From IMG/VR virus record IMGVR_UViG_3300020594_000001, positions 45,600-109,599 of that record: a stretch of 64,000 nt of DNA. One strand, given 5' to 3'. Below the pieces are notes generated by a model, which searched no databases, was not told the DNA's origin, and saw nothing but the letters and a program-made list of their open reading frames with translations. The translations under genes were made by a program, and so were the position numbers. Positions 1 to 64,000 of the stretch are shown piece by piece. This DNA comes from a virus (taxonomy: Duplodnaviria > Heunggongvirae > Uroviricota > Caudoviricetes). Every line of letters begins with the position of its first letter. Within the stretch, counting starts at the first letter, position 1.

Positions 1-116
1 GCGCAGGTTCAACGATTGCAGCGCGGTGCATGGTAAGAGTAGGGCTTTTGATTTGAAGCGCGGTAGCGCTCGATTTAGCGATTGCAGCGCTGAAATTGAA
101 GTTAAGCTTTTGCATG
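1..116 (-). CDS. hypothetical protein; only the N-terminal 38 codons are in the window
   Basis: ATG at 114..116 follows the conserved AGGTAAACATC leader. The N-terminus MQKLNFNFSAAIAK resembles the start of the 190..849 product, so the two may be paralogs. Confidence 0.4.
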
Positions 117-189
117 ATGTTTACCTTGTCGTTTTTGGTTTGTGTGTCGGGTTAGGTAGCGGGTTAGCTGCCCGCTACCTGATGCATGC

Positions 190-849
190 TTAGTTACCTG
201 CCCAGATATCGAACGTTGCATCGCTTGCGCTTTCGATCATGGCAATGAGCGCCCGTGTCGCGGGTGAATCGATAATTTCAGGGGTTTCGCCCTTGCGTGC
301 CATGGTTCCCGTGATACCCAGTGCGGGCAAGATACCGCCCTTGCTGTATGCCACGCTGATTTGCGTCGGGGCAGTTGCGGGGCTCATGTGTTCGCCCCCA
401 TTCAAAGCCCTAACCAGTGAAGTAGCGCGTTCAATAGCGGGCAAGTCATACCCGTTGCCCACAGCGGTTGAATGGGCTTTACGGGTAAGCCCTTGAAATA
501 TGCCCGCACGGTTTTTGGCATGGCACAGCGTGACTGCAAACGCCAGCAAAGCGCATTTAGCTGAGCCCTTAAGGTATGCAGCATCGCCCGACGTCATGAA
601 ACCGAGAAACTGCGACACGCGCAAAACCTTTTTAACGTTTGTGCTGGTTTCAATGTCTTTGGCAAGGGCGTCAAAATCGATGTTAAGGGCTTTTGCAGCG
701 TCGAATTGAGCGCCCGAGAAACCTTCGAGAACTTTGATACCGCGTTCGATATCTTGCTGCATGCCCTCAGCGTTGCGACGCACGTTATAAGCGGTGTTTG
801 CTTTGATCGCTGCGTTAATCAGGGTTTTTTGTGCTTTGATGTTTTGCAT
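190..849 (-). CDS. hypothetical protein, 219 aa (start trimmed to MQNIKAQ)
   Basis: ORF track 190..933. The internal ATG at 849 is directly preceded by the conserved leader AAAGGTAAACACC. Confidence 0.5.
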   Translation of the reverse strand: MQNIKAQKTLINAAIKANTAYNVRRNAEGMQQDIERGIKVLEGFSGAQFDAAKALNIDFDALAKDIETSTNVKKVLRVSQFLGFMTSGDAAYLKGSAKCALLAFAVTLCHAKNRAGIFQGLTRKAHSTAVGNGYDLPAIERATSLVRALNGGEHMSPATAPTQISVAYSKGGILPALGITGTMARKGETPEIIDSPATRALIAMIESASDATFDIWAGN

Positions 850-912
850 GGTGTTTACCTTTGTGTGTAGTGGTTTGTGTGCTGGCTTTGTTTTGAGCCA
901 GTAATGACATTT

Positions 913-2583: not shown

Positions 2584-2906
2584 GAGGCCACCCCTTGGTG
2601 AAAAGGCATCGGGGCGATAAACCCAATCTGGAACCCCACCCGCTCAGCATGCGTTAACGCAGCCCACTGCTGCGGACTCATCTGGAACGCTTCGCAAATT
2701 GCATCGACCAGATCAGCGTCACCCAACAACCGCCCGAACTCCAGGCAGATCAAATCACCCTCCACCAGCTTGCTGGGCCAGTAATCGTGCTTACGATCAA
2801 ATGCTAGGAGCTCTTCAACCGCTCGGTCATACGCGGGGTTGTTCAAGTCATAGTCTTTGGTGAAGGCGAGAACCCTCTGCGCGATCACCTTTCGTTGTGC
2901 TTGCAT
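2571..2906 (-). CDS. hypothetical protein, 111 aa
   Basis: Start at 2906 is preceded by the conserved leader ...CACACAAGGTAAACATCATG. Confidence 0.55.
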   Translation of the reverse strand: MQAQRKVIAQRVLAFTKDYDLNNPAYDRAVEELLAFDRKHDYWPSKLVEGDLICLEFGRLLGDADLVDAICEAFQMSPQQWAALTHAERVGFQIGFIAPMPFHQGVASCKT

Positions 2907-2966
2907 GATGTTTACCTTGTGTGCTGTCGTTATGAGGTGTCATCATGAGCGCCCAAAAGAGGCACT

Positions 2967-3377: not shown

Positions 3378-4000
3378 AAGGAACTGGGCGCTAGGACGGC
3401 TTAGGCACGTTGACGTTTAAAGGCTTAGGAAGCGGAAAAATCTCTTATACGTCCGGTTATTGTTGTCATACGTCTGGTCCTATATCCGGTTATGTGGTTG
3501 CTTGTATATTCGGTTTATATGGTGTGTTTAAGCATCCTCTGTTTGTGTTGTTGATGAACCTCTCTATGGATTCCTTTCTCTATTCATTAACCGTCTCTTC
3601 TTTCTATCTGTTGTAGCTGTCGATATTGTTGTTGCTGGTCTTATCCGCACACTTTCTCTTTTCGTCATACGTTCTTTTTGGATTCGAGCTCGCCTGGTCA
3701 GTCTCTGTCTTCTCTTTCCCTCACGTCGAAATAGATTCGTTTTGCTTTGGTTGCTTTGCTTGAATCGCGCTTGCTTGCGCTTTTGGCGATCGACCTATGC
3801 CAGGGTATCGGTTTTGCTGAAAATCGCTTGTAGCGCGTTTAATCGGTTCTCTCGATACAATCGCGGGCGAAATTGCGGGGTTGCCTATGCTTGAAAAACC
3901 CCTTTAAAATCAATAGCTTACAATACGAGATTAACCCTTGCAAAAAAGACCCTTAAAATCAATGGGTTACGAGGGGTTTTCCTATAGGCTTTGCGGGCAT

Positions 4001-4030
4001 AAAAAAGACCCCACCTGTGAGGGGGTGGGG
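4001..4030 (-). terminator. rho-independent terminator for minus-strand transcription
   Basis: On the minus strand the hairpin CCCCACCC..GGGTGGGG is followed by TCTTTTTTAT. It closes the tmRNA-containing transcription unit. Confidence 0.6.
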
Positions 4031-4227
4031 CCGTGAAGAGTCTGTTTCCAGACTTAGGTAAACACCGATGCAAAGCGGTGTCTGGGTGAGGATAGCACAG
4101 CAGCTTTCGCTATAGGCTGATGGTTGCGCAAGGGCCTAGGGTTCCCTTCCGTTGTTCGGTCCCGCATAGTAGCCCGGGCGGGTTTGCAGCCCTTTGTCCC
4201 GGCGTTGCTTTCTGCTAAGAGGCAACC

Positions 4228-4314
4228 ATCATGTCTGCCAACGAGAAGGAATCGAACCTTCGCCTTCGACCTCGCGAGTCGTTGCTCTACCAAACGCGCA
4301 TCGTTGGCAGACAT
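4228..4314 (-). other. tRNA-like element, a degenerate cloverleaf with anticodon GCG (Arg-like), enclosed in a 16-bp inverted repeat
   Basis: On the minus strand: acceptor GCCAACG/CGTTGGC, D-arm GCGC-GTTTGGTA-GAGC, anticodon loop TCGCGAG, T-arm GAAGG-TTCGATT-CCTTC. Defects are C at position 33, one extra nt before the 3' acceptor strand, and no encoded CCA. The stem is extended by ATCATGTCT/AGACATGAT. Confidence 0.4.
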
Positions 4315-4595
4315 GATGATCCTGGTCTTTCTCTTCGCCAGGGCAGAAGCTGATGGTGTCGCACGCTCTACATCAGGGAGGGCCTACGCCATCACCCGGT
4401 ATCGGTCCAACCGCCAGCGGTCGGTGCGAAACTCCGTCAGGTTTTCACCTTCACCATCATGAAAAAGAGCGGTCCTCACCCTTGCACGTCTGGCGCACGT
4501 CCGGCCTTTCGTAATACTCGCCAGCAGGGTTGATACGGTTTTGAACGGGCCGCGCTCTTTCATGATGGCCCCGGGCATTCCCGGGGAACCTTTAC

Positions 4596-4925
4596 TTAGC
4601 AGTATTGTTCCTCTAATTCTTCAGCGAGTTTGGTTGCGCCTTCCAGCAGCGGTTCAAGCGAAACGTGATAATCAGCGATGACGTCGAAGCCGTCGTTGCC
4701 GTAAACGAGATAGACGGTAGCGCCGGGGTCTTTGTCATCTTGGTGGACGATCAAGGTGTCCTCGCAGGTGAGTCCGATGGCCGCCATAATGTCAGCGACA
4801 TTGCGTGAACGCTTGAGCGCGTATGCCTCGCCATCAAAGACCGATATGCTACGACCCGCAGCGATGACGTCTTGGGCGAGTTTTCGAACGATCTTGCGCT
4901 CGATTTGTTCGGTAGTCGGTGACAT
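4596..4925 (-). CDS. hypothetical protein, 109 aa
   Basis: ATG at 4923..4925; trimmed from ORF 4596..5111. Confidence 0.45.
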   Translation of the reverse strand: MSPTTEQIERKIVRKLAQDVIAAGRSISVFDGEAYALKRSRNVADIMAAIGLTCEDTLIVHQDDKDPGATVYLVYGNDGFDVIADYHVSLEPLLEGATKLAEELEEQYC

Positions 4926-4959
4926 GATTGTTTGCCCGTTGTTTGTTGATATGGCTCTA

Positions 4960-5220
4960 TCATGCGCCCGCAGATGAGGATGCGACATCGCGCAACAGCG
5001 CCTTGAATTGCTCTTCAGACAGAGGCTCTCCCGACAGCTCGCCCGGCTCAATGGTTGAATCCATGTAAGACCATCCGTTCCACCAGTCAGCGACATACCA
5101 TTTCGTTCCATCGCCGGGAACCGACCTGTCTAGCTTCACGAGCTCGCCATGCACGTTGCGGAAGATCATGCCCTCTTCGAGCTCGTATCGGCGCTCATAC
5201 CAGTCAATTTCCTTGCTCAT
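4960..5220 (-). CDS. hypothetical protein, 86 aa
   Basis: A strong AGGGGGAA Shine-Dalgarno lies immediately 3' of the tmRNA coding piece. Confidence 0.5.
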   Translation of the reverse strand: MSKEIDWYERRYELEEGMIFRNVHGELVKLDRSVPGDGTKWYVADWWNGWSYMDSTIEPGELSGEPLSEEQFKALLRDVASSSAGA

Positions 5221-5221
5221 G

Positions 5222-5662
5222 TGCTTCCCCCTACGTTGCGCTTCAATGATGGCCCCCGGCTTCTGTTGCCACCTGCCGGGGAAGGCCGTTACCGCTTAAG
5301 CAGCGGCACGGATGTAGTCGTCGTTGGCGTCTACAAGTTTTGCTTGGTTTATACGGCTCCGCTTGCCGAGTAGTTCGATTCGCTTCAGTATGTCTGTCGA
5401 AACCATGTCAGCCCCATCAGGAATTCCCTCGCCACTTTCGTCGGAGCAACCCGACTACTTGCTTCACTCACCAGTCCGTCGTTATGCGCACTTACGATAG
5501 GACTCGTGGGCCGTCTTGCCCCTCTATGGGCAGTCACGGAGGGAATTCCTGGTGGAGCTGGCGGGAGTCGAACCCGCGTCCAGACACCATTCACTGCACG
5601 TCTCGCGCCCCCCTCCGGCTAGAGGAAGTCGCACACTACCATCATCGAAGCGGGCCGGGCTT
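5222..5662 (-). ncRNA. ssrA: circularly permuted two-piece tmRNA gene: acceptor piece about 5550..5662, intervening hairpin 5416..5547, coding piece about 5222..5415
   Basis: The minus strand reads ...GGACGCGGGTTCGACTCCCGCCAGCTCCACCA (T-arm, acceptor 3' strand, CCA), ending at 5550. The tRNA-like 5' end GGGGCTGACATGGTTTCGACAG starts at 5415, after the CCA. A tag frame GCC AAC GAC GAC TAC ATC CGT GCC GCT GCT TAA (ANDDYIRAAA) lies at 5296..5328. A 14-bp complement links the coding-piece 3' end to the acceptor-piece 5' end. Confidence 0.7.
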
Positions 5663-5966
5663 GATACCGGCTTGTGCGTTATTTTGTTTTCGGGGTGGCC
5701 TGCCCCTCAAGCTAAAGGCTCGTATGCCTACGACACCACTGCACACAGTCTCGCGTTTCCTTCAACGCCGCCGCTTCGATGATGGTCCTGGTGCTTGACG
5801 TTTTCACAAGAGGCGCACCAGGAATACCCCTTGCTATGCTTCGGTTACATGACGGTCTCCGGTTCGTTCATTGTTCACCTTAAAGTTGTGTTGTCAGTAT
5901 AGGTATTGTGCGCTTTAGGTCTCGGAACGAACGCTCTTTACAACCACGGTGATCTGATTCTTCACG

Positions 5967-6436: not shown

Positions 6437-6508
6437 CGTATTTACCTGTTTTGATGTAGTTATGTGCATAGTGCCCGCGACAGTCAGGCGCGTTTTGTGC
6501 TAAAACAA

Positions 6509-6528
6509 TACTGTATATTTAAACAGTA
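6509..6528 (+). promoter_or_regulatory. LexA (SOS) box, beta/gamma-proteobacterial type
   Basis: TACTGTATATTTAAACAGTA fits CTGT-N8-ACAG with palindromic flanks. It lies 11 bp upstream of the ATG at 6537. Confidence 0.6.
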
Positions 6529-6536
6529 TCAAGGCC

Positions 6537-6839
6537 ATGCCCAGATGCACTCTACAAACCTCCCACTCGTTCGGCCAACCCCGCATAGCGTGGTCTGCCC
6601 CGGTCGAGGTGCCTATCAAGCTGTCGACGCGAGAGCACGATAGGCTCAAGCGCGTCGTGTCATACCTGCATGTTCCCTACCAGGGCGACGGCAACCTAGA
6701 CGCCAGCCAGAAAATCGCTGCGCTGTATGAGCCTTACGTGCTTGCGTTCAACTCTGACAAAAGCATCGTCTTTGGTGGGTTCGAGGAAATCACCGGCTCA
6801 CGCTTCTACCAAAGCTGGCTTGTGAAATGGCTCGACTAG
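6537..6839 (+). CDS. hypothetical protein, 100 aa, plus-strand, probably SOS-regulated
   Basis: One of very few plus-strand genes. A LexA box overlaps its promoter and RBS region. Confidence 0.5.
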   Translation: MPRCTLQTSHSFGQPRIAWSAPVEVPIKLSTREHDRLKRVVSYLHVPYQGDGNLDASQKIAALYEPYVLAFNSDKSIVFGGFEEITGSRFYQSWLVKWLD

Positions 6840-9112: not shown

Positions 9113-9315
9113 GACTTCTCGCCCTTGACCACGTCCATGACATCGAAGATCAAACCGTTCTTGACTGCGGCAGAACCAGGGTTGTTCTCGCACAAGTTGA
9201 TGATGTAGGCAACGCCGCCCATGTCGGGAATTCTGGCGTTGTGGCAGAGGGTGTCGTAGATTCCGAGCTCTTTGGCACGCTTGATGATTCTGTCGATACG
9301 CTTAACTTTCTGCAT
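9109..9315 (-). CDS. hypothetical protein, 68 aa
   Basis: Start at 9315 is preceded by the leader ...GACAAGCAAGGTAAACATCATG. Confidence 0.5.
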   Translation of the reverse strand: MQKVKRIDRIIKRAKELGIYDTLCHNARIPDMGGVAYIINLCENNPGSAAVKNGLIFDVMDVVKGEKS

Positions 9316-9376
9316 GATGTTTACCTTGCTTGTCGTTCTTGATGGCTCCCATTGTGCTCACGGGAAACAGGCGTGC

Positions 9377-28167: not shown

Positions 28168-29367
28168 CTATGCCCCCTTCACGCAAAGAATCTGCTTCAG
28201 GACGTGAACCACTTCAACCAGGTCGCGCTGGTTTTCCATCACTACGTCGATGTCTTTGTAGCTACTGGGAATTTCATCCAGAACCGCATCATCTTTTCGG
28301 CACTCGACGCCACGCGTTTGCTCTTCGAGGTCAGCGACGCTGAAAAGCTTGCGTGCTTTACTGCGCGACATCTTCCGCCCTGCCCCGTGTGAACATGAGC
28401 AATACGAATCCAGATTGCCCTTTCCACGCACGATATAGCTCTTCTGGCCCATCGAACCAGGAATGATGCCCAGATCACCCTCACGAGCTCGAATCGCACC
28501 CTTGCGAGTCACCCAAAGGTTCTTGCCGAAGTGGTTTTCGCGTGCCACGTAGTTGTGATGGCAGTTGATCGCTTCCTGGGTAATGGTGAACTCAACGGGA
28601 ATGTGTCGTCGCAGGGCTGCGATTACCGCTACCATCATTTCAGCCCGATTTTCCAAGGCGTATGCTTGGGCCCACTCAACTGCCTCCATGTAATCGTTGA
28701 AGTCGTCGGTGTCTTCAGGAAGGTATGCCAAATCGCCATCAGGCAAGTGAATAAAGAACCGCTCCATCGTGCGCTTAGCCTTTGCGATGTAGTGGTTACC
28801 GATCATGTTGCCGATACCACGCGAGCCCGAGTGCAGCATGATCCAGACATCGTCATTCTCGTCAATGCAGAGCTCAACGAAGTGGTTGCCGCTACCCAGA
28901 GTGCCAAGCTGCGCGGTAGCTTTCTTCGCAGCTTTGTGGGCGCTTTCGCTGCCCCGCTCGCCGAAAACTTCCTGAACACTTGGAGGGACATCAAGTATCG
29001 TGGCTGGCCCCCTGCCCTGCTTGTGCGCGCCACCGGCACCCAGCGGCACGTCGCGCTCAATCTGATGACGAATGCTCACCAGTGAATCGGGCAGATCAGA
29101 CGCCTTCAGAGACAGGCGCACAGCGTTCATGCCGCAGCCGATGTCAACACCGACAGCGGCGGGGATAATTGCCTTATCAGTGGCAATAACCGAACCAATC
29201 GTCGAGCCCTTCCCTGCATGAACATCGGGCATCAACGCAACGCCATTGCCAGCGATGAACGGGAGCCGCGCGAGGTTCTTGGCTTGGTTCAGCGCTTCTT
29301 CCTCGATATCGTCGGTCCATACTTTAATGGGGCGAGGCAGGGTCTCGTCGTGAATCACTTTCATCAA
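28168..29367 (-). CDS. rtcB: RtcB-family RNA 3'-phosphate ligase
   Basis: Family motifs MPDVHAGKGSTIGSV, CHHNYV and SHGAGR; 399 aa. Confidence 0.8.
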   Translation of the reverse strand: MMKVIHDETLPRPIKVWTDDIEEEALNQAKNLARLPFIAGNGVALMPDVHAGKGSTIGSVIATDKAIIPAAVGVDIGCGMNAVRLSLKASDLPDSLVSIRHQIERDVPLGAGGAHKQGRGPATILDVPPSVQEVFGERGSESAHKAAKKATAQLGTLGSGNHFVELCIDENDDVWIMLHSGSRGIGNMIGNHYIAKAKRTMERFFIHLPDGDLAYLPEDTDDFNDYMEAVEWAQAYALENRAEMMVAVIAALRRHIPVEFTITQEAINCHHNYVARENHFGKNLWVTRKGAIRAREGDLGIIPGSMGQKSYIVRGKGNLDSYCSCSHGAGRKMSRSKARKLFSVADLEEQTRGVECRKDDAVLDEIPSSYKDIDVVMENQRDLVEVVHVLKQILCVKGA

Positions 29368-45491: not shown

Positions 45492-45820
45492 GTCTCAACA
45501 TCGAACATACCTATGTGACAATCGGATTTTGGAATGTTCAGCTTCTGTGCCAGTAGCTCATATGCCCGGCTGCGGGTGAATGCGCCCGTCTTCCAGAGTG
45601 GGTCGAACGCAGCATGCGCCCGCATCTTTGCACTTCGCAGAGCCCCGTTTGCCAGTCGACCCAAGGGCTTATCAGTGCCTTTATGGCAACCGACATACGC
45701 ATCGCACGGCGCGCACAGATAGAAAAGTTGCTCGAACAAGTCTGGACGATGCGGGTATATCTTGCGCCCCGTCACAAGGCTGCTTGGCCCCCTGCAGTAT
45801 GAGCACTGAACAATTCTCAT
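45437..45820 (-). CDS. zinc-finger protein, 127 aa
   Basis: Start trimmed to MRIVQCSYC. Cys clusters CSYC ... CAPC. Confidence 0.4.
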   Translation of the reverse strand: MRIVQCSYCRGPSSLVTGRKIYPHRPDLFEQLFYLCAPCDAYVGCHKGTDKPLGRLANGALRSAKMRAHAAFDPLWKTGAFTRSRAYELLAQKLNIPKSDCHIGMFDVETCRQVAMVAKTIWGSPLE

Positions 45821-52766: not shown

Positions 52767-55700
52767 TCAGTTGGTTAGTTCTGCGATTTGGGCGCAGGTT
52801 TGTTGAAGCAGCTTGATCTTGCTCGCGTCGAAGTAGATGGTGCTCGGATTCATTCCAAAGACGATGCTGGCGTCCAAGGCGGGATCGAAGATTGTCTTGC
52901 CCACTAACTCTGTGGGGTTACCCTTGGTCGACGGGGCAAAGTAGCGAATGGCATTACCACCCATGGCGACAATGACGGCGGGCTTGAGAATTTCAATTTC
53001 CCGAGCCAGATACTTTGAGCAACCATTGATTTGCTCTGTCGAAAGCACCTTCTGCTCTTTTGGTTTTACTGACTTCACCAGGGAAGTGTAGTAACCGTCG
53101 TTAGGACTGAGACCCGCGTCTTTGAGCGCCGCGCGAACCGCGTCACCAACGTCGCCCGACAGCATTTTTCCGTCTTGCGCTTCCTTCCAGTTGGGGGAGT
53201 CGAACACCATCATGAAGCGTGGCTTCTTACCCATGCTGGGCGTGGGGTGCTGCCCGCCAGACAACGAGCAACCGTCGCAAACACGCATTTCTCCGATGAT
53301 TTCTGCAATCTTCAGCTGAGCGATACGGTCGGCATTGAGCCCACGGTCCGCCTTCACTGCGTCAACGGTGTATCCCGGCATGAGTTCCAGGCGGTCTTTC
53401 AGTCGGTCAGGGTGCAGCGCAGGCAAGCCGTCGCCAAGCGATGCAAAAGCGCCCACCTTGCGTAGCACCTCTTTGTGGCGCACGTTGATTTTGCCCGCGA
53501 CGGTGCTCTTGGCGACCTCTTCAAACTGATCGAACGACTCGAAGGGTTTACCCTGGGCAGCGCGCACCTCAAGAATCTTCGCAGCCACGTTTACGCTGAT
53601 ACCCTTGATGGCCTGGAATGGCGCATAGAGTGTGCGTTCACCATCGATTGTGATTGTGTCGGACGACTTATTGATATCCGGTGGCAGCACGTCGATCCCG
53701 TGCGTCTTGGCGTCCATCATGATGGGCGCAAGCTTGTCGTCATCGTCGACCACCGACATAGACGCCGCATAGAACTCAGCTGGGTAATAGACCTTGAGCC
53801 ACATCATCTGATAGGAAATCAAGGTGTATGCGAACGCGTGGGACTTATTAAAGCAATACGCGGCAAAGCCCTCGATGTCGTTCCAAAGTGCCTGCGCATC
53901 AAGCTCACTCATGCCACTGGCGACTGCGCCATCGATGAACTGTTGGCCCATCGTTGCCATCTTGTCCTTGTCTTTCTTACCGATCGCTTTACGAAGCCCG
54001 TCAGCTTCTGCGCCGGTAAACCCGCAAAGGTCGACCGCGATTCGGGATACCTGCTCTTGGTAGACCGTAACCCCGAATGTTTCGCGCAGCGCGGGTTCGA
54101 CCAGCGGACTGATGTAGCTGGGCAGTTTCTTGCCTTGCTTAACTGCGATGTATTGATCCATCAGCCCCGCGTCGATTGGACCCGGACGAAACAGTGCTGT
54201 CGCGGCGGCGATATCCTCGAACGTCAGAGGCTCTAACACCGCCAAATCTTTCAGCAGCTTGCGCATGCCCGAGCCAGAAAACTGAAACACGCCCACCGTA
54301 TCGCCTCGACCAAATGCTTCAAGCACCTTACGATCGTCCAGCGGCAGCGCCAGCAGGTTGATCGTCTTATGATGGCGCTCTTTGATATAGCGACGGGCAT
54401 GCGCAAGCACGTCGAGCGTAGACAGACCCAGAATGTCCATCTTGACGAGGCCGAAGTCTTCAACCACGCTTTTATCCCAGTTCACCACCGGCAGCGCACC
54501 CTCTTGACGCTGCATCACCACCGCGCGGGTGTTGATGTCATCGTGCGCGACAATGACGCCCGCTGCGTGCTGCCCCAGGTTACGCATGTTCCCTTCGAGC
54601 GTCGTCGCATGGTTCCATATGACGGGATGCTCAGCCTTGAACTTTGCAATATCTGGCACGCTCGCCGCAGACTCTTCGAGCGGAAGCGAAACCCCGTGCT
54701 CCTTCTCCATTTGCTTGGAACACGAATATTCGTAGGGCTTCAGACCATGCACACGGGAGACGTCCCGAAGTGACGAAGCGGAGCCCAGGGTCGAATAGTT
54801 CGAAATGCCCGCGACTTTGGCGCGACCAAACCTGCCCACGATATACTCGACGACTTCGCCTCGTCGTGAGCTCATGAAGTCCATGTCCACGTCAGGCAGG
54901 TCGATACGGTCGGGATTGATGAAGCGTTCGAACAGAAGGCCAAACCGAATCGGGTCTAAGTCTGTAATGCCAAGCAGGTATGACACCAATGAGCCCGCAG
55001 CTGAACCGCGACCAGGGCCAACGATGACGTCTTGCGCTTTTGACCAACCGACAATCTCTTGAACAAGCAAGAAGTAGTTCGAGAACCCGAGGCGTCGCAG
55101 CACGCCAAGCTCATACGCCAAGCGCTCCTTATACCTCTGCATATCTTCGGGCGCGGGCTTGTGGCCCAGCACTTCACTACCAAAGCGTTTTACCCAGCCT
55201 TCTTTGCAGCGCTCTAGCAACGTCTTGAATGCGTCTTCAGCCATATGGGGCAGCGACGCAGGCATCTTCTCGAAGCGATAGAAGCACTGCTCGACAATCT
55301 GATCCATGGACGCGAAACTTTGCTTAACTTCATCGCCATTCATTCCGATACGGCGGGCGGTCGAAATCATTCGCGTCGCGAGCTCTTTGGGGTCATCGAA
55401 GCACCAATCCCGGGTAGCTGGCACAGGCAGCTGGGGAGAGCCCATGGTGTATGTTCCAGAGCTTGTGATGGCCCTGAGAACATCATGGCTTGCAGCTTGG
55501 TCGCTTGATGCATAAAAGCGCGGGTAGCCCGCAATCAGCGGTAGCCCACGACTGCGGGCGCATGCCAGCGCTTTGCGGTTGAGCGTGTCGAACAACATGC
55601 TCTGAACCGGCGTAATCTCGATATAGAGCGGGTGTTTCTCCGACAGCGCTTGGACGATTTCGCCTGCCTTGGGGTGATGAAACAGGCAGAATAGGTCACC

Positions 55701-56135
55701 CGTTGTGACAATCACGTCTTCAAGCGCCAGCACCTGTGAAAGCTCGGTGCGGGCATGGTAGTAAAACTGGTCAGCGCTGTTTGCCTTAGACAGCAAGCCC
55801 ATCAGCGACCGCAAACCCGTCTCGGTCTTTACGTAAACCTTGATTTGAAAAGAGTGGTTTCGAACCTCAACCGCGCCCTCTTTCTTCTTTTGCTGAGCGG
55901 TGGGCGGGCGATAAGTTGCGCTGTCATATACACGAAGCGTGCACCCAAGAACAGGGGTAATGTCGTGCTTCTTGCAAGCAGACGAGAATGCGGGCAAGCC
56001 CGATATCGTCATGGTGTCTGTGAGCGCGATCGATTTGAAGCCCAACTCTTTGGCGCGCTCAACCATCGGCACCACCTGCAAGATTGACTCCCCGACAGAG
56101 TGATCAGACCGAACAGACAGTGCATGTTGTAACAC
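52767..56135 (-). CDS. dnaE: DNA polymerase III alpha subunit (DnaE-type)
   Basis: N-terminal PHP domain and the palm region GPGRGSAAGSLVSYLLGITDLDPIRFGLLFERFINPDR; 1122 aa. Confidence 0.85.
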   Translation of the reverse strand: MLQHALSVRSDHSVGESILQVVPMVERAKELGFKSIALTDTMTISGLPAFSSACKKHDITPVLGCTLRVYDSATYRPPTAQQKKKEGAVEVRNHSFQIKVYVKTETGLRSLMGLLSKANSADQFYYHARTELSQVLALEDVIVTTGDLFCLFHHPKAGEIVQALSEKHPLYIEITPVQSMLFDTLNRKALACARSRGLPLIAGYPRFYASSDQAASHDVLRAITSSGTYTMGSPQLPVPATRDWCFDDPKELATRMISTARRIGMNGDEVKQSFASMDQIVEQCFYRFEKMPASLPHMAEDAFKTLLERCKEGWVKRFGSEVLGHKPAPEDMQRYKERLAYELGVLRRLGFSNYFLLVQEIVGWSKAQDVIVGPGRGSAAGSLVSYLLGITDLDPIRFGLLFERFINPDRIDLPDVDMDFMSSRRGEVVEYIVGRFGRAKVAGISNYSTLGSASSLRDVSRVHGLKPYEYSCSKQMEKEHGVSLPLEESAASVPDIAKFKAEHPVIWNHATTLEGNMRNLGQHAAGVIVAHDDINTRAVVMQRQEGALPVVNWDKSVVEDFGLVKMDILGLSTLDVLAHARRYIKERHHKTINLLALPLDDRKVLEAFGRGDTVGVFQFSGSGMRKLLKDLAVLEPLTFEDIAAATALFRPGPIDAGLMDQYIAVKQGKKLPSYISPLVEPALRETFGVTVYQEQVSRIAVDLCGFTGAEADGLRKAIGKKDKDKMATMGQQFIDGAVASGMSELDAQALWNDIEGFAAYCFNKSHAFAYTLISYQMMWLKVYYPAEFYAASMSVVDDDDKLAPIMMDAKTHGIDVLPPDINKSSDTITIDGERTLYAPFQAIKGISVNVAAKILEVRAAQGKPFESFDQFEEVAKSTVAGKINVRHKEVLRKVGAFASLGDGLPALHPDRLKDRLELMPGYTVDAVKADRGLNADRIAQLKIAEIIGEMRVCDGCSLSGGQHPTPSMGKKPRFMMVFDSPNWKEAQDGKMLSGDVGDAVRAALKDAGLSPNDGYYTSLVKSVKPKEQKVLSTEQINGCSKYLAREIEILKPAVIVAMGGNAIRYFAPSTKGNPTELVGKTIFDPALDASIVFGMNPSTIYFDASKIKLLQQTCAQIAELTN

Positions 56136-62118: not shown

Positions 62119-62412
62119 ATGAGCCCTACCGAAATTGTTCTGAAGCAGTTCCCCAATCGTGTTTCTTTGTCTGTGGCAGAAGCGGGCGCGGCCCTGGGCT
62201 ACGCTCGCCAAACCACCTACAACCTGAAAGCGAAAGGGAAATTTCCCGTCAGGATCAGCTTCGCGGGCAAGACTCCGATCGTCCATCTGCACGACCTCAT
62301 CAGCTTCCTAGAGGGCTTTCCCGCTTCGAACGATTCCAACTTCACCCCAGCACCCAAGAAGAAAGGGCGTCCCTCGAAAGCGGACGCCCTTCGCAAAGCA
62401 GGGGTGATCTAA
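62119..62412 (+). CDS. AlpA/Xis-family excisionase or DNA-binding protein
   Basis: LSVAEAGAALGYARQTTYNLKAKGKFP is a MerR-like winged HTH of the AlpA type. It overlaps the int stop. Confidence 0.6.
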   Translation: MSPTEIVLKQFPNRVSLSVAEAGAALGYARQTTYNLKAKGKFPVRISFAGKTPIVHLHDLISFLEGFPASNDSNFTPAPKKKGRPSKADALRKAGVI

Positions 62413-63506
62413 GCGACTTTCGTTGCTTCGCTGCGGTTGGCGGCGACTCGCTCCGCCATCTTCTGAGCCAAGAATTTGGCGTTCAAATGAGTGTATCGCC
62501 TCAGCTGACGGTAGTCACGGTGCCCAGTAACTGCCGCTGCCTCCACTAAGCTCATACCCAAGTCTTCGAAAAGTCTGCTCGTCGCTTCATGGCGCGCGTC
62601 ATGCAGACGCAAATCTTTGAATAGTTGTGGGTCGGGGGCGATGCCCTGCTCCAGACACTCTTTCTCATAGATTTCTCGGGCACGCTTTCGCGCACGACCA
62701 AATGCCTGGGTAAGCGAGTCAGCTGCCACACCAAAAACCCTTCCTTCCTTGCGATCCCCGATAACTTCGCGTAGCACTTCTGCAACACCGGGCAGGATCG
62801 GAATCGTTCGATCATCGCCATTCTTGGTGTCGGGCAAAAACACTGTCGCGTCTCGTAGGTTAACGTGCGGGATTTCCATTTCAGCAGCTTCACCTCGGCG
62901 CATCGCGCTATTAACCGCCACATAGAGAAACGCTTTGAGCGCTGGTGAATTGCTTGCCTCGACGATCTTTGTATATTCATAGTCCGCCTCGTTCATTTCA
63001 CAAACGAAACGCCTGGTTCGCCCCTTTGGGGCGGCGGGGCGTTTAAGACCTTCTATGGGATTCTTGAGGCCCTTGAAGTCGTTGCATTCCGATATGGCGA
63101 AGTTATAGAACGACGAAATCATCCCTAACTCGCGAATGACTGTCCCTTTGGACACCGTCAGCAGTCGAGTGTTTCGGTATTCGCGAAAATCGGACAATCC
63201 ACAATCGAGCAACTCTTTGCGCGCCAAGGGCAATCTCTTCAGCCGCAAGATGAAGTTGAGCTCCTGCTTTGCACCCTTTTTGGACGGCACGGCCTTCTCC
63301 TGGCAATAGTCCAAAAGGTCGTAGAGCCGCTTTCCCTTAAGGTGCCGCATGTCGACAAAGGTCTTTTCCTTAATCGCCTTCTCAGTCTGTTCCGCCCATT
63401 CTTCTGCTTCGCGGCGGGTGGGGAAGGTTTCTGATAACGACGGGGTGCCCTTAACCCGCACCTTTGCCCTGAACTGGTATGGGCCACGCTCTTCAATGAC
63501 AGCCAT
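62409..63506 (-). CDS. int: tyrosine-type phage integrase
   Basis: C-terminal catalytic motifs LHDARHEA and TGHRDYRQLRRYTHL (R..H..R..Y); adjacent to a tRNA. Confidence 0.85.
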   Translation of the reverse strand: MAVIEERGPYQFRAKVRVKGTPSLSETFPTRREAEEWAEQTEKAIKEKTFVDMRHLKGKRLYDLLDYCQEKAVPSKKGAKQELNFILRLKRLPLARKELLDCGLSDFREYRNTRLLTVSKGTVIRELGMISSFYNFAISECNDFKGLKNPIEGLKRPAAPKGRTRRFVCEMNEADYEYTKIVEASNSPALKAFLYVAVNSAMRRGEAAEMEIPHVNLRDATVFLPDTKNGDDRTIPILPGVAEVLREVIGDRKEGRVFGVAADSLTQAFGRARKRAREIYEKECLEQGIAPDPQLFKDLRLHDARHEATSRLFEDLGMSLVEAAAVTGHRDYRQLRRYTHLNAKFLAQKMAERVAANRSEATKVA

Positions 63507-63590
63507 AGCTCAATCTCCGATAAAAAAGTCTTCGCTTTGTTATAGGAGTCGCTGTCCCAAAAGTGTCCCAAATAATGTGCTAACTGGCTC

Positions 63591-63630
63591 TAAAAGCAAA
63601 AATGCACTTAGGGGAATTAACCCTAAGTGC
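63591..63630 (-). terminator. rho-independent terminator downstream of tRNA-Val
   Basis: On the minus strand the perfect 10-bp hairpin GCACTTAGGG-TTAATTC-CCCTAAGTGC is followed by ATTTTTGCTTTTA. Confidence 0.55.
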
Positions 63631-63652
63631 ATGATTTTGCGTAACTTCTAAG

Positions 63653-63728
63653 TGGTGGGTGCTACAGGGGTCGAACCTGTGACCTACGCCTTGTAAGGGC
63701 GCCGCTCTACCAACTGAGCTAAGCACCC
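63653..63728 (-). tRNA. tRNA-Val (anticodon TAC)
   Basis: Manual cloverleaf on the minus strand, GGGTGCTTAGCTCAGTTGGTAGAGCGGCGCCCTTACAAGGCGTAGGTCACAGGTTCGACCCCTGTAGCACCCACCA, with an encoded CCA. Confidence 0.85.
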
Positions 63729-63887
63729 CGGGGCCATCTGCAGCGGGCAAACACGCAACGTGCCTGCCCGGCGATATTGCCATGCGAACCTGCCAAGGTT
63801 TACCCCGTTCAGGTTCGCCTTTTTGGGGCCACTTCGTGCCAAAAAAGCCTAAGGATTATAGCCCGCTGGCCCTAGGCACGCAAACGC

Positions 63888-64000
63888 TTAGTTGACGGCG
63901 TCTTTCAGGGCCTTGCCAGGACGGAACTTGGGCACGCGAGCCTTCTTGATCTTGATGGCTTCGCCGGTGCGCGGGTTGCGGCCGGTGCGGGCGGCGCGCT
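63888..64000 (-). CDS. host HU/IHF-family DNA-binding protein, C-terminal part (gene continues beyond the window)
   Basis: Translation ...[33 protein letters not shown] in a GC-rich, host-like flank. Confidence 0.6.

Follow-up and report, generated by a model that had tools for sequence, protein, structure and literature searches.

We analyzed a 64,000-nt stretch of DNA (the window; positions 45,600 to 109,599 of the Caudoviricetes virus record IMGVR_UViG_3300020594_000001) and found that its minus-strand locus at ~5640..5250 is a real, intact, circularly permuted two-piece transfer-messenger RNA (tmRNA; ssrA) gene. It is very probably an intact phage-borne permuted ssrA gene of the beta type, located ~58 kb inside a prophage integrated at tRNA-Val(tac)/hupB of a Pusillimonas-like member of the Alcaligenaceae. 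An earlier note made from the sequence alone had described a permuted tmRNA gene here, and the features that it listed were all present, with coordinate offsets of 1 to 4 nt (for example, the T-arm and CCA lie at 5581..5550, as opposed to 5579..5548).

Identification and anatomy of the tmRNA gene

The note had proposed ARAGORN and Rfam searches, and both detected a permuted tmRNA. ARAGORN called it at 5205..5642 (-) with the tag ANDDYIRAAA*. The Rfam family of permuted tmRNAs, RF04321, was the best match, with 106.1 bits (gathering score, 47 bits) and an E value of 1.1e-19 at 5612..5296, covering model positions 1-213 of 213; the tmRNA call is thus far beyond chance. RF01850 (beta_tmRNA) was the next-best family and the best subtype, with 53.9 bits and an E value of 1.6e-15 in an 851-nt search, and did not reach its gathering score of 84 bits. 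The permuted two-piece form was borne out by both programs and by the consensus structure described below. The encoded CCA ends at 5550 and GGGGCUG begins at 5415 on the same strand, which is the permuted order. The pieces on the minus strand are, in order, the acceptor piece with its CCA, a 134-nt spacer hairpin, and the coding piece:

5550..5640, minus strand: acceptor piece (RF04321 alignment, ARAGORN, consensus structure with compensatory pairs)
5416..5549, minus strand: intervening spacer of 134 nt, a long hairpin (fold z = -3.95)
5250..5415, minus strand: coding piece (ARAGORN, RF04321, consensus structure)
5296..5328, minus strand: tag frame GCC AAC GAC GAC TAC ATC CGT GCC GCT GCT TAA, encoding ANDDYIRAAA* (ARAGORN)

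The acceptor piece consists of GGUAGU (5640..5635), which is the 5' strand of the outer P2 helix, a variable hairpin, the P2 3' strand, the T-arm, the acceptor 3' strand and CCA; the last three elements are GGACGCGGGTTCGACTCCCGCCAGCTCCACCA at 5581..5550 (-). The acceptor 5' strand (GGGGCTGA / GGGGCUGA) begins at 5415 (-), past the CCA. It opens the coding piece as GGGGCUG, with G3·U70, and is followed by the P2 strands (ACUACU at 5374..5369), the pseudoknot PK1, the tag frame, a hairpin at the stop codon, the P5 hairpin (5281..5254) and GCCA. The tag frame, which the earlier note had read in the same way, shows an alanine resume codon, an in-frame stop, an Ala-Ala C-terminus and PK1 upstream. 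The spacer, also predicted by the note to form a hairpin, folded at -55.8 kcal/mol, and none of 200 shuffled sequences was as stable. Its base is formed by GGAAUUCCCUC / GAGGGAAUUCC, with arms at 5549..5539 and 5430..5420.

Conservation of the structure in related phages

The tmRNA region showed 83-89% identity to unannotated DNA in the Bordetella phage vB_BbrM_PHB04 (PHB04; MF663786) and the N4-like Achromobacter phages Axy11 and JWDelta. These three scored 96-105 bits with RF04321 (PHB04, 104.5 bits). Pattern scans added the viral and metagenome contigs L006, L013/L014/L017, L015, L016 and L019, all above the cut-off. The tags of PHB04 and L006 were identical to that of the window (ANDDYIRAAA), and those of Axy11 and JWDelta were ANDDYIRVAA and ANDDYIRLAA, respectively. 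L016 encodes ANDSQFRAAA, and the compact L013/L014/L017 group encodes ANDSSYLKVA.

For the consensus structure, the acceptor and coding pieces of seven homologs were joined, with each spacer replaced by AAAA, and folded with RNAalifold. The consensus contained 55 pairs, 24 of which had at least one compensatory double change. The 7-bp acceptor stem GGGGCUG:CAGCUCC carried a G·U pair at position 3 (alignment columns 86/99) that was invariant in all seven sequences; a G·U at this position is the identity element for AlaRS. The T-arm showed compensatory changes across the seven homologs. The inner P2 helix is GUGUCU:AGACAU in the window, GCGUUC:GGGCGC in PHB04 and GUGUCAA:UUGGCAU in Axy11. The outer P2 helix is GGUAGU (5640..5635) paired with ACUACU (5374..5369), and GGUUGU:ACAACC in classical members. 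The PK1 stem GGC/GCC was conserved, the consensus also contained the hairpin over the stop codon, and the P5 stem showed compensatory G-C to A-U changes in Axy11 and JWDelta. At the base of the spacer hairpin, the sequence changed while the complementarity was kept in PHB04 (CUGGCAGCAUUGG/CCAGUGCUGCCAG), L006 (CUGGCGGCAUUGG/CCAGUGCCGCCAG) and JWDelta. The retention of the helices and the spacer base by compensatory changes indicates that the gene is selected and intact, and not a fragment.

Phage-borne tmRNAs have been catalogued before: 133 unique phage tmRNAs were reported, 53 of them scored as permuted, and PHB04 is entered as 'Permuted' in Table S1 of that study (Buchholz et al. 2022, PMC9004378). 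A 2025 tmRNA database, which is the source of RF04321, holds 79 phage tmRNAs (PMC11915505). Since PHB04 stands in Table S1 of PMC9004378, and near-identical genes occur in phages of the same host family, a phage-borne permuted tmRNA as such was already known.

Structural comparison with PHB04 showed the same tag, ~89% identity over the conserved parts, the GGUAGU:ACUACU outer helix, PK1 and the P5 loop. However, PHB04 is a 94-kb lytic myovirus, unlike the window prophage, and its gene lies in a tRNA cluster adjoining RtcB. Its spacer is 72 nt long, compared to 134 nt in the window, and the 5' helix sequences differ. Furthermore, the X-X' hairpin stands on different sides of the gene: in PHB04 it comes after the coding piece, and in the window it comes before the acceptor piece. 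JWDelta and Axy11 belong to the clade of the window gene and have the same cis 5' helix architecture (see below). They and the Alcaligenes phage QDWS595 (Schitoviridae), in which ARAGORN found a permuted tmRNA, as it did in the Xanthomonas phage JGB6, infect hosts of the same bacterial family as the window prophage. These three phages differ from the window in their podovirus backbones and in a 5' helix whose first bases are the CCA of a tRNA-like element located upstream, and QDWS595 also differs in its classical GGUUGU:ACAACC outer helix and its tag ANDNVYAAAA.

The permuted genes of PHB04, JWDelta, Axy11 and QDWS595 are unannotated in GenBank. We also noted that 'hypothetical protein' coding sequences overlap the genes of Axy11 (L002 2870..3103) and JGB6 (L021 1498..1662). 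ARAGORN misses the Axy11 gene, and in JWDelta (L003 2775..3460) it gives a wrong 27-residue tag from the 3' hairpin region; the JWDelta tag given above is that of the Rfam alignment. As a separate observation, two Logan contigs (L084 and L085), which are independent short-read assemblies of the window phage, break at the same T-arm base (window ~5579). This shared break suggests that the samples contain a second sequence with the same T-arm/acceptor k-mers, perhaps the host ssrA or another phage tmRNA.

Two-piece tmRNA of betaproteobacteria was reportedly described by Sharkady and Williams in 2004. The window gene resembles RF01850 in the permuted order, the tRNA-like domain, the position of outer P2, PK1 and P5. 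Several helices are non-canonical in its RF01850 alignment. The L013/L014/L017 contigs, which share the PK1 signature of the window, passed the RF01850 cut-off with 92-98 bits. Their spacer is 4 nt long, and the RF01850 consensus has an unaligned insert of ~25 positions there, compared to 134 nt in the window. In contrast to RF01850, the window gene has additional long-range flanking helices and is carried by a phage, not by a bacterial chromosome. Judged from these alignments, it is a member of a divergent clade of the beta type. Positions 1-49 of RF01850 appear, from our reading of the consensus, to contain a promoter, whereas the window has no promoter-like sequence there. These positions had prompted us to consider TGGTAGTGT as an extended -10 promoter; this candidate was rejected, as its GGUAGU pairs with the invariant ACUACU and both strands change together to GGUUGU:ACAACC in classical members.

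A PK1 signature common to the window, PHB04, L006, L013/L014 and L015 had no match in 185,579 bacterial and archaeal species genomes (one genome per species). There is hence no chromosomal counterpart among the scanned genomes, including the identical host ssrA in a chromosomal context that the earlier note had named as a ground for doubt, and the scan revealed no bacterial donor of the clade. A metagenome scan with the signature gave three matches, and the family is small. Megablast with 24 kb of the window and blastn with 3900..5100 against the phage collection gave essentially nothing. The clade seems to be confined to phages that infect Alcaligenaceae.

Other phage tmRNAs include alpha-type two-piece forms in the Caulobacter phiCbK-like phages and the marine myophages Melnitz and Mosig, and one-piece forms in cluster C mycobacteriophages and Bacillus phage G. 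They share with the window the concept of a phage with its own trans-translation RNA that uses host SmpB, whereas the tmRNA lineages, tags and hosts differ. In Melnitz, the form of the gene mismatches the host class, which was interpreted as a host switch. A mismatch of form is also probable here: the Alcaligenaceae hosts are generally known to have a standard one-piece ssrA of their own (tmRNA database; reportedly also Felden et al. 2001), and their phages carry a two-piece beta-type gene. Several unrelated phages have this mismatch in common. A search for the host ssrA within 62 hupB loci found none.

Probable prophage context and host

The element that carries the tmRNA gene is very likely an integrated prophage of at least 64 kb. 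Its end was recognized near the right border of the window:

62409..63728, minus strand: prophage end, with a tyrosine integrase (62409..63506) and tRNA-Val(tac) (63653..63728) (PHROG, ARAGORN, host homology)

The integrase matched PHROG 1 (E 2e-42), and the same integrase occurs in the same arrangement on a 93-kb ENA metagenome contig (ERZ27256356 k141_101577). The 3' end of hupB lies at 63888..64000, where 63888..63998 (-) encodes the HU C-terminus …KALKDAVN*. The best match of this flank was Pusillimonas noertemannii DSM 10065 (L070), with 94% identity over 63652..64000 only, stopping exactly at the tRNA 3' end. Since the host homology stops there, everything to the left of 63652 is an insertion. 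A degenerate pattern built on the final 22 codons of HU matched only Alcaligenaceae of the Castellaniella/Pusillimonas/Pollutimonas group. By this flank homology, the host is a betaproteobacterium of the Alcaligenaceae, in the Pusillimonas/Castellaniella clade, which agrees with the beta- or gammaproteobacterial host that the earlier note had suggested from a LexA box.

A 27-nt translation-start repeat (minus strand CAAGGUAAACAUCAUGCAAAAG...) is common to several small open reading frames (ORFs) on both sides of the tmRNA gene (plus-strand coordinates 102..128, 836..862, 2893..2919 and 9302..9328; the genes are on the minus strand). This AAGGUAAACAUCAUG translation-start region is the leader motif of the earlier note, and its occurrence to either side of the tmRNA speaks for a single element. 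The note had concluded from the leader motif that the phage itself encodes the tmRNA; the integrase/tRNA-Val junction adds to this conclusion and refines it to an integrated prophage.

The prophage also encodes a DnaE-type polymerase (52767..56135, minus strand) that shares 43% identity with its counterpart in Rhizobium and Pseudomonas phages of 110-120 kb, the large and small subunits of ribonucleotide reductase, ThyX, SbcCD, a UvsX-like recombinase, a flap endonuclease, an RNase T-like exonuclease, CobT/CobS-like proteins and the RNA ligase RtcB (28168..29367, minus strand; PHROG 1075, E 2e-154). The DnaE product on the source contig has a UDG domain match, and in PHB04 RtcB lies a few kilobases from the tmRNA/tRNA cluster. 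Long runs of small same-strand ORFs without family matches are also present.

The gene might instead be a non-functional passenger, that is, a fragment or pseudogene of a host ssrA left by imprecise excision or an old attachment site. Elements that integrate into ssrA commonly leave or carry ssrA fragments, and the T-arm region alone also matches other phages. Phages often have 3' ssrA fragments at attP, as is generally known and is also reported in PMC9004378. However, the window gene lacks no part, as it comprises both pieces, the tag frame, PK1 and P5. Some 58 kb separate it from the att junction, where the site is tRNA-Val and not ssrA, and compensatory substitutions have preserved its helices in lytic and temperate phages alike. 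In addition, the absence of the PK1 signature from all species genomes scanned leaves no evident recent bacterial donor. We therefore consider a passenger origin highly improbable and retain the reading of an intact, selected phage gene.

The tmRNA gene lies within a run of small same-strand ORFs, and its transcription unit likely extends from a promoter-like site (6532..6505) to the first strong terminator (4032..4007), as predicted by motif scans:

6505..6532, minus strand: promoter-like TTGATA-16-TATTGT containing the LexA-type palindrome CTGTATATTTAAACAG at 6511..6526 (consensus scan, 9-of-12 match)
3998..4032, minus strand: first strong intrinsic terminator downstream of the gene, GGCCCCACCCCCUCACAGGUGGGGUC followed by UUUUUU (terminator scan)

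The promoter-like site lies upstream of the tmRNA gene, between the minus-strand operon and the divergent plus-strand ORF 6537..6839, which has no family match. The palindrome CTGTATATTTAAACAG (CTGT-N8-ACAG) is perfect and the only one in the window, whereas 0.72 are expected by chance. The LexA box of the earlier note thus exists as a palindrome, though it is not significant on its own. Its position within the promoter-like site hints at SOS-inducible expression; it is a hint only, since about one such palindrome is expected by chance. Just past the minus-strand terminator, we also observed a 28-nt direct repeat in two copies, 49 nt apart (AAAAACCCCTTTAAAATCAATAGCTTAC and AAAAAGACCCTTAAAATCAATGGGTTAC; 3894..3921 and 3943..3970). 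Each overlaps a plus-strand promoter-like site, and they may be operator- or iteron-like.

Helices and repeats flanking the gene

The tmRNA gene is accompanied by long-range helices and copies of a short repeat, all on the minus strand:

5638..5786, minus strand: hp1, a long-range helix adjoining the acceptor piece on its 5' side (duplex dG -32.9, precursor minimum free energy fold)
5787..5822, minus strand: small hairpin CCUGGUGC...GCACCAGG, followed by ACCA and the hp1 5' arm (read from the sequence)
5239..5255, minus strand: downstream repeat copy GGGCCAUCAUUGAAGCG, directly after P5 (motif count, pairing tests)
4453..4571, minus strand: hp2, a long-range helix CCAUCAUGAAAGAGCG / CGCUCUUUUUCAUGAUGG (dG -31.1; 18 pairs from the base)
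4225..4322, minus strand: tRNA-like element (4307..4237) in a stem clamp (Rfam tRNA, 36.6 bits)

The hp1 arms, ACCAUCAUCGAAGCGG (5786..5771) and CCGCUUCGAUGAUGGU (5653..5638), enclose a 117-nt structured loop, and the helix ends at GGUAGU, its last three bases (GGU) overlapping outer P2. The pairing is perfect (dG -32.9) and was matched by none of 300 shuffles. The minimum free energy fold of the precursor uses this cis helix (z = -3.75). Equivalent cis 5' helices with different arm sequences were found at the same place in PHB04 (AUCCUCAAGaCGUGGUG / CACCACGcCUUGAGGAU; 4 of 300 shuffles), L006 (AUCAAGaGAGGCGG / CCGCCUCcCUUGAU; 2 of 300), Axy11 (CCAUUUGAUAGCGACUCUC / GAGAGUUGCUUUCAAAUGG; 0 of 300) and JWDelta (CCAUUUGAUAGAAGCUCU / GAGAGCUUCUUUCAAAUGG; 0 of 300). 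The predicted cis 5' helix is thus significant in all five sequences, the window and four relatives, and its arms covary. Helices with a CCAU...AUGG base adjoin the tmRNA in most relatives (~0.05 in shuffles).

The motif GGRYCATCAT occurs four times in the 64 kb, compared to 0.5 expected, and none of 100 shuffles reached four copies. All four are on the tmRNA strand within 4313..5788 (no more than 1.5 kb), and three of them have a downstream AUGAUGGU partner, in hp1, hp2 and the clamp at the tRNA-like element. The base of hp2 is CCAUCAU...AUGAUGG (copy at 4571..4562), preceded by the small hairpin CCCCGGGaaugCCCGGGG. An ORF at 4384..4578 can be called mechanically across hp2 and may be spurious. 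The clamp has 12 bp, AUCAUCAUGUCU / AGACAUGAUGGU, with the base motif GGRYCAUCAU...AUGAUGGU (copy at 4322..4313). The element inside it was called only in the relaxed mode of ARAGORN, as tRNA-Arg(gcg) with an unusual anticodon, and has no encoded CCA. Each repeat copy in the window follows a small GC hairpin and RYCA, resembling a minihelix-CCA end. The layout at 5787..5822 parallels that of P5, GCCA and the downstream repeat, with no sequence similarity to P5 beyond the layout. We also considered hp1 and hp2 as copies of one element of the miniature inverted-repeat transposable element (MITE) type, and rejected this because their interiors are dissimilar (135 of 500 and 446 of 500 shuffles) and only the ~10-nt base is common.

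The downstream copy at 5239..5255 has no local partner and can pair with 5653..5638. It is homologous to the 5' arm of the 3' hairpin of PHB04 (score 34; 0 of 500 shuffles), and the PHB04 hairpin located after P5 has a homolog in the 3' half of hp1 in the window (score 53; 0 of 500 shuffles). A 3' hairpin after P5 was strong in PHB04, JWDelta and L006 (z = -4.7, -5.0 and -2.9, respectively), as opposed to z = 0.0 in the window, which lacks it as an ORF begins at 5220. These homologies can plausibly be read as the result of duplication or recombination at the ends of genes that were already permuted. Alignments of the acceptor piece with the sequence downstream of the coding piece in PHB04 and L006 revealed no significant remnant (482 of 500 and 160 of 500 shuffles).

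The earlier note had interpreted the same repeats differently. In its model, the tail of the coding piece would bind the beginning of the acceptor piece in trans, which would keep the two RNAs together, and 5800..5663 would be the decaying leftover of an unpermuted ancestor that had been duplicated in tandem. The complementarity that it had given as 14 bp does exist: CCATCATTGAAGCG (5252..5239) and CGCTTCGATGATGG (5652..5639) can form 15 bp including 2 G·U pairs (dG -25.2), which is unusual for this segment pair (1 of 300 shuffles). However, the trans pairing was significant only in the window, and not in PHB04 (37 of 300 shuffles), L006, Axy11 or JWDelta, and the acceptor-side arm has a better, perfect cis partner in hp1 (dG -32.9), which the precursor fold uses. 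The second repeat copy, ACCATCATCGAAGCGG at 5786..5771, and the short tag-like frame GCA TAC GAG CCT TTA GCT TGA at 5727..5707 are also present as described. The upstream region does repeat the layout of the coding-piece end (hairpin, RCCA and CCAUCAUYGAAGCG), and the homology between hp1 and the PHB04 downstream hairpin indicates that some rearrangement or duplication at the gene ends did occur. Nevertheless, the 6-codon frame is not significant on its own. It lies in the loop of hp1 and comes after the repeat, whereas the order in a relic should be the reverse. Local alignment of the 345 nt upstream with the coding piece returned only the 17-nt repeat (score 24; 11 of 500 shuffles); with the repeat removed no similarity was left (214 of 500), and the pseudo-tag loop showed none (330 of 500). 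A permissive Rfam search of 5100..5950 found no second tmRNA-like signal at E <= 10. Furthermore, GGRYCATCAT is not specific to tmRNA ends, as two of its four copies stand at unrelated structures 0.7-1.5 kb away. The permutation is identical in all relatives, classical beta-type genes included, so that it long predates anything still visible at the locus and any relic would come from a duplicated permuted gene, not an unpermuted one. The fossil interpretation fails on these grounds, and we regard the model as a whole as unlikely.

Alternatively, the CCATCAT...ATGATGG inverted repeats could act as DNA, being the ends of a small mobile cassette or sites of recombination through which the tmRNA module passes from one phage genome to another, with the direct copies at 5788..5771 and 5255..5239 marking the insertion. 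The direct repeats bracket the whole tmRNA gene, and very similar tmRNAs occur in unrelated backbones (a myovirus, N4-like podoviruses and the window prophage). The same hairpin lies on opposite sides of the gene in PHB04 and the window, and L013 and L014 have identical tmRNAs with differing interiors between conserved inverted-repeat ends. On the other hand, no recombinase or endonuclease gene adjoins the module, all flanking ORFs being without family match. The arms differ among phages yet stay complementary, as one would sooner expect of a secondary structure under selection, in RNA or DNA, than of a fixed recognition site. In Axy11 and L016, moreover, the first bases of the 5' arm are the CCA of a preceding tRNA or tRNA-like gene, as would be expected from RNA processing. 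A role at the DNA level is likewise improbable in our judgment.

Two side observations concern these flanks. First, an odd tRNA-like gene immediately precedes the tmRNA in Axy11 (L002), at ~90-170 nt before the acceptor piece, and JWDelta (L003) has a similar one. The Axy11 gene has an acceptor stem GGAAGGG/CCCUUCC, a T-arm, an encoded ACCA and an atypical 45-nt middle, and was called by no tRNA finder; the 5' helix begins with the bases of its CCA. Second, the inverted repeat in L013 and L014 is GGGGCCAUCAAC...GUUGAUGGCCUGAACC, ~190-300 nt upstream of the T-arm; its ends are conserved, and the arm and loop sequences inside them differ completely between the two contigs, as if a variable cassette were set within fixed ends.

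The start of the 5' arm at an upstream CCA in Axy11 and L016 points to a role in RNA processing, and the CCAUCAU...AUGAUGG stems, which flank the gene in the window, the tRNA-like element 1 kb downstream of it and the homologs in other phages, are best read as putative structured spacers or processing stems between the stable RNAs of a polycistronic transcript. A more elaborate possibility is that the small hairpin, RYCA and CCAUCAU...AUGAUGGU stem together serve as a phage-specific RNA punctuation that frees stable RNAs, namely both tmRNA pieces and the tRNA-like RNA, from an SOS-induced polycistronic transcript. The orphan downstream copy would then pair with the acceptor-side arm after removal of the leader, and would either close the mRNA-like domain or let RtcB rejoin the pieces into a one-piece tmRNA. 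We consider this scheme speculative and quite improbable, and keep to the putative processing stems.

Proposed function and significance

In the proposed mechanism, RNase P would cut the minus-strand precursor at G5415, and tRNA-type 3' maturation would follow the encoded CCA (5550), which would remove the spacer. Pairing in the acceptor stem and in the P2 helices (GUGUCU:AGACAU and GGUAGU:ACUACU) would hold the two pieces together, and AlaRS would alanylate the tmRNA through G3·U70. A tblastn search of the window for SmpB homologs found none (best E 0.49), so host SmpB is assumed. With it, the RNA would enter stalled ribosomes, translation would resume at GCC, and AANDDYIRAAA would be appended. 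As a result, ribosomes would be freed and their products marked for proteolysis in SOS-induced or lytic growth. The tag of Escherichia coli is AANDENYALAA; compared to it, the window tag keeps AAND and the terminal AA, and ALAA is changed to RAAA. According to what is reportedly known from Flynn and colleagues (2001), the RAAA end should alter, and not abolish, recognition by ClpX, ClpA and SspB.

Several points weigh against this overall picture. The mature ends, charging and tagging are deduced from established tmRNA biology, and structural details of the beta type may not transfer to the window gene, since its RF01850 score of 53.9 bits lies below the cut-off of 84 bits. The very likely prophage status is derived from the integrase/att junction, the replication module and PHROG matches; genes for capsid, terminase or tail were not found among the ORFs scanned in the 64-kb window, and one ORF look-up leftward on the contig returned only further ORFs without family match. 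The LexA-type palindrome is single, with 0.72 expected, and the promoter scan is a consensus match only, so that SOS control stays a hint. The cis helix was not found at the same position in L016 and L013, and the processing-stem reading of the helices is putative. Finally, the one-piece form of the host ssrA is presumed from what is generally known of Alcaligenaceae.

Phage tmRNAs are catalogued yet functionally unexplored, and the window adds a temperate, possibly SOS-controlled member. The gene is unannotated or mis-annotated in all GenBank relatives, and ARAGORN misses or mis-reads some copies, which is of practical relevance for annotation. The conserved flanking stems offer a testable lead on how stable RNAs may be excised from polycistronic phage transcripts. 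The Alcaligenaceae include pathogens of the genera Bordetella and Achromobacter. A lysogen would be a convenient system in which to examine how a phage may benefit from having a ribosome-rescue RNA of its own, and from a degron that ends in …YIRAAA instead of …ALAA.

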